IMG/VR virus record: IMGVR_UViG_2585427756_000015
Strand: one strand, 5' to 3'
Source: a virus
Lineage: Duplodnaviria > Heunggongvirae > Uroviricota > Caudoviricetes
DNA: 9,667 nt
In this document: piece after piece, positions 8,183 to 8,274 of the stretch
Layout: each line of letters opens with the position of its first letter
Position numbering within the stretch: position 1 is the first letter of the stretch
The notes under the pieces: generated by a model
Databases searched by the model: none
What the model was told of the DNA's origin: nothing
Seen by the model: the letters and a program-made list of their open reading frames with translations, nothing else
Position numbers and translations under genes: made by a program

Positions 8183-8211
8183 GCAAAAAACCCGCACATT
8201 TGAGCGGGTTT
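8183..8211 (-). terminator. tR'-like intrinsic terminator immediately downstream of the PR'-like promoter
   Basis: Minus strand reads AAACCCGC-UCAAAUGU-GCGGGUUUUUUGCUU, a GC-rich stem with a U-tract, about 50 nt downstream of the predicted late-promoter start site. Confidence 0.6.
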
Positions 8212-8245
8212 ATACACTTTACAGCAATATATCACATTTACATAA

Positions 8246-8274
8246 AATATATGCTATCTAATTGACTTTTGCAA
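8246..8274 (-). promoter_or_regulatory. PR'-like late promoter (sigma-70 type) overlapping the 3' end of the Q-like gene
   Basis: Minus strand reads TTGCAA (-35, 8269-8274) - 17 bp - TATATT (-10, 8246-8251). Positioned exactly where lambdoid PR'/qut lies relative to Q and tR'. Confidence 0.5.

Follow-up and report, generated by a model that had tools for sequence, protein, structure and literature searches.

Q antiterminators fall into three unrelated families, one of which, PF06323, is the Q82 family (PMC9388147). The Q proteins of lambda and phage 21 belong to the unrelated families PF03589 and PF06530, respectively. Both of these phages combine a constitutive promoter that contains a Q binding element (QBE) with a sigma70-dependent pause, a terminated leader RNA and processive antitermination (PMC9388147, PMC4914094). 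The lambda pause lies at +16/+17 (PMC5001585) and termination at tR' at +193 (PMC4914094), compared with predicted positions of approximately +25 and +55 at the locus described here. At the phage 82 promoter PR', the QBE is located between the -35 and -10 hexamers (PMC4914094). The pause element of 82 PR' is a -10-like sequence with an extended -10, closer to TATAAT than that of lambda and followed by the discriminator GCC at +15 to +17; sigma70 engages this element once the RNA has reached 21 nt, and polymerase pauses at +25/+26, with U at +25 (PMC5001585).

We analysed a stretch of 9,667 nt from the Caudoviricetes record IMGVR_UViG_2585427756_000015 (hereafter the window), which carries the part of a lambdoid prophage that spans the nin region, Q and the lysis genes, all genes of interest being on the minus strand (table 1). 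The segment from 8274 to 8183 of that strand is very probably the late-gene control region of the prophage, and of the phage 82 type, as judged from its sequence. The preliminary description had already read a lambdoid late-control module here, made of Q, a PR' overlapping the end of Q, a short leader and tR'; the membership of Q in the Q82 family and the base-for-base alignment of the promoter to that of phage 82 now bear this out.

Table 1. Coordinates of annotated and predicted features in the window.
Feature	Position	Strand	Basis
DUF968 protein, C-terminal part	9316-9648	minus	
RusA	8944-9303	minus	
Q gene, 229 aa, Q82-family antiterminator	8258-8947	minus	PF06323, phrog_304, identity to phage 82 Q
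PR' -35 hexamer TTGCAA, within Q codons Ile-Ala-Lys	8269-8274	minus	direct read and consensus scan
17-nt spacer AAGTCAATTAGATAGCA, candidate QBE	8252-8268	minus	placement as in 82 PR'
PR' -10 hexamer TATATT, just past the Q stop	8246-8251	minus	direct read and consensus scan
Predicted transcription start, AAA, +1 = first A at 8239	8237-8239	minus	register calibrated on the 82 proxy (L005)
Predicted sigma70-dependent pause element: TG (+6, +7), A, TATATT (+9 to +14), discriminator-like GCT (+15 to +17)	8223-8234	minus	82 register
Predicted promoter-proximal pause site, +24 to +26 (T, G, T)	8214-8216	minus	inferred from the 82 pause
tR' intrinsic terminator, +29 to +52, plus T-run 8190-8185	8183-8211	minus	scan and fold
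Kinase cassette leader; ribosome binding site GGTGAG (8121-8116)	8112-8182	minus	direct read
Ser/Thr protein kinase, 254 aa, first gene past tR'	7347-8111	minus	Pfam Pkinase E=1.5e-33; phrog_2361 E=8.5e-98
PP2C-type Ser/Thr phosphatase, 247 aa; start overlaps kinase stop	6607-7350	minus	Pfam PP2C_2 E=3.9e-14
DNA methylase gene, 3' fragment	6170-6496	minus	
Three tRNAs	5871-6120	minus	
Three STnc100-like RNA repeats	5118-5795	minus	
SASA-type esterase	3042-4895	minus	
Holin, DUF1327, lysozyme, Rz	528-2969	minus	
IS-type (IS3-type) transposase fragment; rve, rve_3 and rve_2 domains; N-terminus missing at window edge	42-488	plus	

The genes DUF968, RusA, Q, cargo, holin, lysozyme and Rz follow one another on a single strand, Q lying between the nin region and the lysis genes, and the annotated order around Q is identical in Escherichia coli 55989 and E24377A. 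Of the complete E. coli genomes, 30 carry the stretch 8100-8500 at no less than 99% identity, 55989, VR50 and BEN2908 among them, and a further 19, with E24377A as one of these, carry it at approximately 87% identity. Carriers of this prophage comprise enteroaggregative, enterotoxigenic, avian and other E. coli.

The ATG start of Q at 8947 overlaps the RusA stop (ATGA), and its TAG stop occupies 8260-8258. The protein matches PF06323 with E=5.5e-84 and 281.7 bits (cutoff 25), residues 4-219 covering profile positions 1-216 of 220, and phrog_304, "anti-termination protein Q-like", with E=5.6e-102. Over its full length of 229 aa it is 67.2% identical to the Q protein of phage 82 (X92588.1), so that the assignment is to the Q82 family and not to some unrelated one, the outcome that the preliminary description had named as counting against its reading. 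A Pfam search of Q at E<=0.01 returned PF06323 alone, with no match to the lambda-type PF03589 or the 21-type PF06530. The PDB sequence search with Q retrieved 13 unrelated proteins (best E=0.027) and no antiterminator chain; by this search and by the literature (PMC9388147), no structure of a Q82-family protein exists.

Sequence similarity is unevenly distributed along Q. Residues 1-80 are 54-100% conserved among relatives, and the C-terminal 69 aa are just 41% identical to phage 82 Q. Residues 161-229, including the helix-turn-helix-looking QQELARLCGIKPDNWSHNY, form discrete classes that move together with the promoter spacer, and this part of the protein may be the domain that recognises the QBE. 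We considered this covariation of spacer and Q C-terminus as evidence of specificity and rejected it, since the spacer itself contains the last Q codons and the linkage is trivial. At the nucleotide level, when 8960-8100 is used as query, its first 479 nt (the 3' end of rusA and the 5' part of Q) match PPompW-type and further E. coli phages at 94% identity, after which the similarity ends. A mosaic joint is visible within Q at approximately 8469-8480, near codon 160.

The preliminary description had noted a near-consensus promoter overlapping the end of Q. Its position, the 17-nt spacing and the overlap with the gene all hold; "near-consensus" is too generous, the two hexamers matching 9 of 12 consensus positions. 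Sites of this kind number 14 in the window, compared with 11.9 +/- 3.7 in shuffled sequences, and the hexamers by themselves stay at chance level. The observation rises above that level through orthology, namely a gap-free alignment from -38 to +17 with phage 82 and 40-odd other Q82-family genes. The -35 hexamer of phage 82, TTGCAA, is identical, and the phage 82 record, which stops at the Q stop codon, already shows ...ATATTGCAAAACTGGATTAA. We annotate PR', at the end of the Q gene, as a predicted sigma70 promoter and as the ortholog of 82 PR'. On the opposite strand, TTGCAATATCTCGC (plus strand, 8269-8282) overlaps the PR' -35. At the matching site phages 82 and 434 have a perfect CII box, TTGC-N6-TTGC, which the 434 record labels a CII site together with the -35 of paQ, an antisense promoter; the copy in the window matches at 7 of 8 positions (TTGC-N6-TCGC).

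A full-text search of the available literature for the literal 82 PR' sequence gave no relevant match. We reconstructed it from L005, a prophage in E. coli strain DAM that agrees with 82 Q at 100% identity over the final 323 nt of the gene and continues as TTGCAA-AACTGGATTAAAAAGCA-TATATT-TCATAT-AAATCTGATATTTTGCCAATGTTGTA, with a pause region N6-AAATCTGATATTTTGCC...T(+25). With +1 set at the first A of AAA, this sequence has an extended -10-like TGATATTTT at +6 to +14, GCC at +15 to +17 and T at +25 (in the register used for the window, its pause element reads TGATATTTTGCC). Because it thereby fits three published properties of 82 PR' (PMC5001585), we accepted L005 as a proxy for that promoter.

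In the same register the window reads TTGCAA-AAGTCAATTAGATAGCA-TATATT-TTATGT-AAATGTGATATATTGCTGTAAAGTGT, and its pause segment can be written N6-AAATGTGATATATTGCT. The spacer, which includes the last Q codons and the stop codon, matches the proxy spacer AACTGGATTAAAAAGCA at 12 of 17 bases and differs at five. From its placement we take it to be the Q binding site, an assumption carried over from phage 82. Downstream of the start, the element TGATATATT occupies +6 to +14 (8234-8226), again as in 82. This predicted sigma70-dependent pause element is the most diagnostic part of a Q-type promoter, and the preliminary description had overlooked it. The two loci thus share a Q family, TTGCAA within the 3' end of Q, a 17-nt spacer, TATATT, an AAA start, an extended -10-like element at +6 to +14 and a G/C discriminator at +15. 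They differ in the -10-like hexamer of the pause element (TATATT in the window, TATTTT in 82), in the discriminator (GCT versus GCC), in the QBE region and in leader length, the terminator stem starting at +29 in the window and at +50 in the proxy. Position +25 is G in the window, whereas U is preferred at the 82 pause, and the exact pause position and half-life may therefore differ from those of 82.

We examined the conservation of these elements in 100 loci with Q82-family genes, drawn from genomes, viral contigs and phage records, whose Q proteins are 52-100% identical. Among the distinct PR' variants the -35 hexamer is TTGCAA in all but one (L014, TTGCAG) and the 17-nt spacing is kept, while nearly all have a TAnnTT variant as -10 and an AAA start. 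Almost invariant is TGATAT at +6 to +11, and, the -35 hexamer apart, no noncoding block is better conserved than +6 to +14 (mean consensus frequency 0.95 over 35 distinct sequences). Since the -10, the start and the pause element lie past the stop codon, coding constraint cannot account for their conservation. Spacer classes track the classes of Q C-terminus, a linkage subject to the codon overlap noted above. A terminator is found within 120 nt of +1 in 42 of 44 distinct variants, with stems of 27 different sequences; among random 120-nt windows taken from these loci the figure is 11%. The two variants that lack one are copies damaged by a single base. A terminator that is kept by position and not by sequence is strong evidence of function.

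The strong intrinsic terminator that the preliminary description placed after the promoter is indeed present. Its stem AAACCCGC (8211-8204), 8-nt loop TCAAATGT (8203-8196) and stem GCGGGTTT (8195-8188) are followed by TTT (8187-8185). The stem has eight pairs, five of them G-C, and the hairpin on its own folds with -12.5 kcal/mol; the 61-nt leader folds with -15.9 kcal/mol (z = -3.1 against shuffles). The terminated RNA is predicted to be approximately 55 nt long. Terminator-like sites are enriched in the window as a whole, at 21 compared with 9.1 +/- 3.3 in shuffles. At a permissive Rfam threshold the lone overlap was Leu_leader, which we rejected as a generic hairpin and U-run resemblance (27.4 bits against a gathering score of 50, E=0.025).

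Two leader designs can be recognised among the relatives. In the long design, found in most of them, a hairpin at approximately +11 to +38 precedes a terminator stem that starts at +42 to +54; in the 82 proxy these lie at +13 to +37 and +50 to +76. The short design is found in the window, the E24377A type, phage 434 and an Enterobacteriaceae genome (L009), and in these the terminator stem starts at +28/+29, only 3-4 bases past the predicted pause site, which gives a predicted terminated RNA of no more than approximately 55 nt. In single-sequence folds the short leader of the window is without the hairpin seen in the long-leader loci (L005, L010-L019 and L026-L099), where that hairpin overlaps the 3' end of the pause element, as TGCCA...TGGCA in one class and GTCG...CGAC in another. 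RNAalifold found no consensus structure for 14 long-class leaders, because the hairpin registers differ slightly, and we claim no covariation.

Phage 434 (OL657226.1) is the closest parallel for the short leader, with TTGCAA-17-TATACT, TGGTATGTT at +6 to +14 and a record-annotated terminator, AAACCCGCT...AGTGGGTTT, that starts at +28. Its Q is 63% identical to that of the window and, unlike in the window, the first gene past tR' encodes a membrane protein and not a kinase. The record describes a phage isolate, with the source given as "paris sewer late 1950s"; as an isolate with that terminator annotated, 434 suggests that the short design is compatible with a working phage. On a more speculative reading, the hairpin at approximately +11 to +38 would either be dispensable for Q82 action or have its role assumed by the terminator hairpin.

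On the phage 82 model, the locus would operate as follows, each activity step in this prophage being one that we infer from the sequence. E. coli sigma70 RNA polymerase would initiate constitutively at PR', with +1 at 8239; retained sigma70 would rebind TGaTATATT at +6 to +14, and the complex would scrunch and pause near +25. Without Q, polymerase would leave the pause and terminate at the hairpin and U-run between +29 and approximately +57, releasing an RNA of approximately 55 nt. Once the upstream early operon yields enough Q, the protein would bind the element between -35 and -10, engage the paused complex with the help of NusA and then move with polymerase. The modified polymerase would pass tR' and the later terminators (those close to the tRNAs, within the STnc100-like repeats and ahead of the holin gene), and readthrough would transcribe the kinase, PP2C, tRNA, esterase, holin, lysozyme and Rz genes.

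The preliminary description had also named the kinase cassette as the first cargo of the late operon. The kinase gene does lie directly past tR', and, among the matches listed for the query 8100-8500, all span both Q and the kinase start. The cassette is present in 50 of 5426 complete E. coli genomes and the Q/PR'/tR' stretch in 49 of 5426; no match to the cassette was found among 50,697 phage records, even at blastn sensitivity. A 279-aa kinase reading frame that starts at TTG (7347-8186) was rejected, as it would cross the terminator and the ATG at 8111 with its GGTGAG matches the RefSeq annotation. The phosphatase also matches NCBIfam Stp1_PP2C_phos with E=2.2e-27, below the curated cutoff. 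It is seen to match just the C-terminal half (273-520 of 565) of PHROG 5650, and thus the homologous phosphatase in other phages appears to be fused to an N-terminal domain, possibly a kinase.

The comparison with Stx2 phages led to a different outcome from the one first proposed, in which the kinase pair sat in the toxin slot. These phages share with the window a backbone of methylase, tRNA-Ile/Met(CAT), two tRNA-Arg and SASA esterase at approximately 90% nucleotide identity, although the Q of Stx2_95 has 126 aa and that of the window 229. In Stx2 phages stx2AB lies between the last tRNA and the esterase gene, and the counterpart in the window, approximately 4900-5870, holds STnc100-like repeats. 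The kinase cassette, at 6607-8111, directly follows tR' and sits on the 5' side of the methylase gene, in a slot distinct from that of stx. The STnc100-like copies stand in tandem on the minus strand (5118-5327, 5393-5566 and 5605-5795), each ending in a terminator-like hairpin; two exceed the Rfam gathering score, with 165 and 136 bits, and the third scores weakly (30 bits). The tRNA with the CAT anticodon (6045-6120, minus) is called tRNA-Met by ARAGORN and tRNA-Ile in RefSeq.

Whether the cassette answers to Q is a separate question from the identity of the switch. The kinase/PP2C pair, which the preliminary description had read as Q-dependent, may be so. It is also possible, though we do not favour it, that the pair is not, or not solely, Q-dependent and represents an inserted "moron" with independent expression, such as an anti-phage or lysogeny-control module, served in the lysogen by a promoter of its own or by leak-through at tR', which would then merely mark the insertion point. 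Base composition speaks for an inserted cassette, the kinase and PP2C genes having a GC content of 36-40% against approximately 50% on either side. So does the comparison with the E24377A variant, in which identity is 63-87% in Q stretches upstream, 88% over 8240-8181 and 97-100% from 8180 downstream; the jump at 8180 indicates that the cassette begins just past the terminator and is a separate evolutionary unit with its own history. Yet the near-equal counts of cassette and Q/PR'/tR' stretch, and the matches listed that span both Q and the kinase start, speak against an independently expressed moron.

The evidence for a separate promoter is likewise divided. A possible extended -10, TGTTACAAT (8137-8129), is found in the kinase leader, 18 nt upstream of the start codon, and favours independent expression; against this, a consensus scan found no -35/-10 pair between tR' and the kinase start, and the E24377A variant, with TCTTACAAT at this site, no longer has the TG of the extended -10. 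An inverted repeat on the minus strand, TTGTAAT (8154-8148)-N11-GTTACAA (8136-8130), overlaps TGTTACAAT. The E24377A variant alters both arms together (TTGTAAG...CTTACAA), so that a T/G position becomes G/C; the repeat could be an operator or an RNA hairpin.

A role in defence or lysogeny control can also be argued from known kinases. Like KKP of Pf phages, PD-T4-6 and Stk2, the window carries a prophage-borne Hanks-type Ser/Thr kinase and a PP2C phosphatase, and KKP is a prophage kinase-phosphatase module that controls lysogeny and defence (PMC11341870). The kinase matches the PADLOC defence models mad6, PD-T4-6 and Stk2, but in the generic kinase domain alone (best PD-T4-6 model E=1.4e-34, profile 11-201 of 327; Stk2, 160-348 of 500), which weakens the point. 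KKP is moreover a PP2C-kinase-kinase triplet with a CSD-fused kinase (PMC11341870), whereas here a single 254-aa, Pkinase-only kinase is followed by PP2C; with one kinase and no CSD fusion, the pair falls outside the KKP definition.

Whether the late switch is still in use was considered next to its architecture. Truncation has left the N6/N4 DNA methylase gene with no more than its C-terminal third, at 6170-6496 (a pseudogene in 55989 according to RefSeq). The gene order of the E24377A variant is Q, kinase, PP2C, small ORF, full-length methylase gene and tRNAs; the interval from PP2C to the tRNAs holds a methylase gene complete at 1050 nt and an ORF of 198 nt, and a deletion must thus have come after acquisition of the cassette. 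Directly beyond Rz the window has the transposase fragment (rve, 42-488), at a place where E. coli 55989 has other genes, and the prophage may be interrupted downstream of its lysis genes in the source strain. By these two signs the prophage may be defective, and Q may therefore never be made in this host. The module could then be an inert relic whose hairpin merely insulates the cargo from early-operon transcription, a view to which the truncated methylase gene, the transposase fragment and the absence of the cassette from sequenced phage records all lend something. We nevertheless consider it improbable: no damage is seen in the ORFs of Q and the lysis genes or in the motifs of PR', pause element and terminator, 30 complete genomes carry 8100-8500 at 99% identity or more, and a diverged second lineage retains every element. 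Most improbable of all is that TGaTATATT (8234-8226) is itself the promoter, with a start near 8219 and the upstream TTGCAA/TATATT kept only by its overlap with Q codons; TGnTATATT is a good extended -10 that needs no -35, and TATATT is closer to consensus than the TATTTT of phage 82, but the homologous 82 element is a sigma70-dependent pause signal downstream of the start, with a pause at +25/+26 (PMC5001585), and the upstream -10 and N6-AAA start lie past the stop codon, where coding constraint is no explanation.

We return to the preferred reading of a Q82-type late switch. The module is an ordinary copy of the well-studied lambda-like late switch in its phage 82 version, and adds little that is new for mechanism. 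Experimental work might be worthwhile only on the kinase/PP2C cargo and on the short-leader variant. In this context we put forward, as a speculation that is more likely wrong than right, that the site directly past tR' in short-leader Q82-type loci serves as a dedicated cargo slot, separate from the one used by stx. In approximately 1% of complete E. coli genomes this site holds a low-GC kinase/PP2C pair. The pair would be expressed in the lysogen by leak-through from a constitutively active PR', and Q would raise its expression upon induction. It would then be a phosphorylation module coupled to the lysis-lysogeny state, with a possible part in defence or prophage control of the kind shown for KKP in Pf phages.

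The main use of the analysis is the correct annotation of the late switch in a prophage of E. coli strains 55989, VR50, E24377A and BEN2908. Beyond this, it brings out two natural leader designs for Q82-type switches and places an uncharacterised kinase/phosphatase pair under, or adjoining, a late switch. For the Q82 family as a whole, the natural PR' variants, with their invariant -35, spacing and pause element and their variable spacers and Q C-termini, are raw material for defining the Q82 binding element and the specificity domain.
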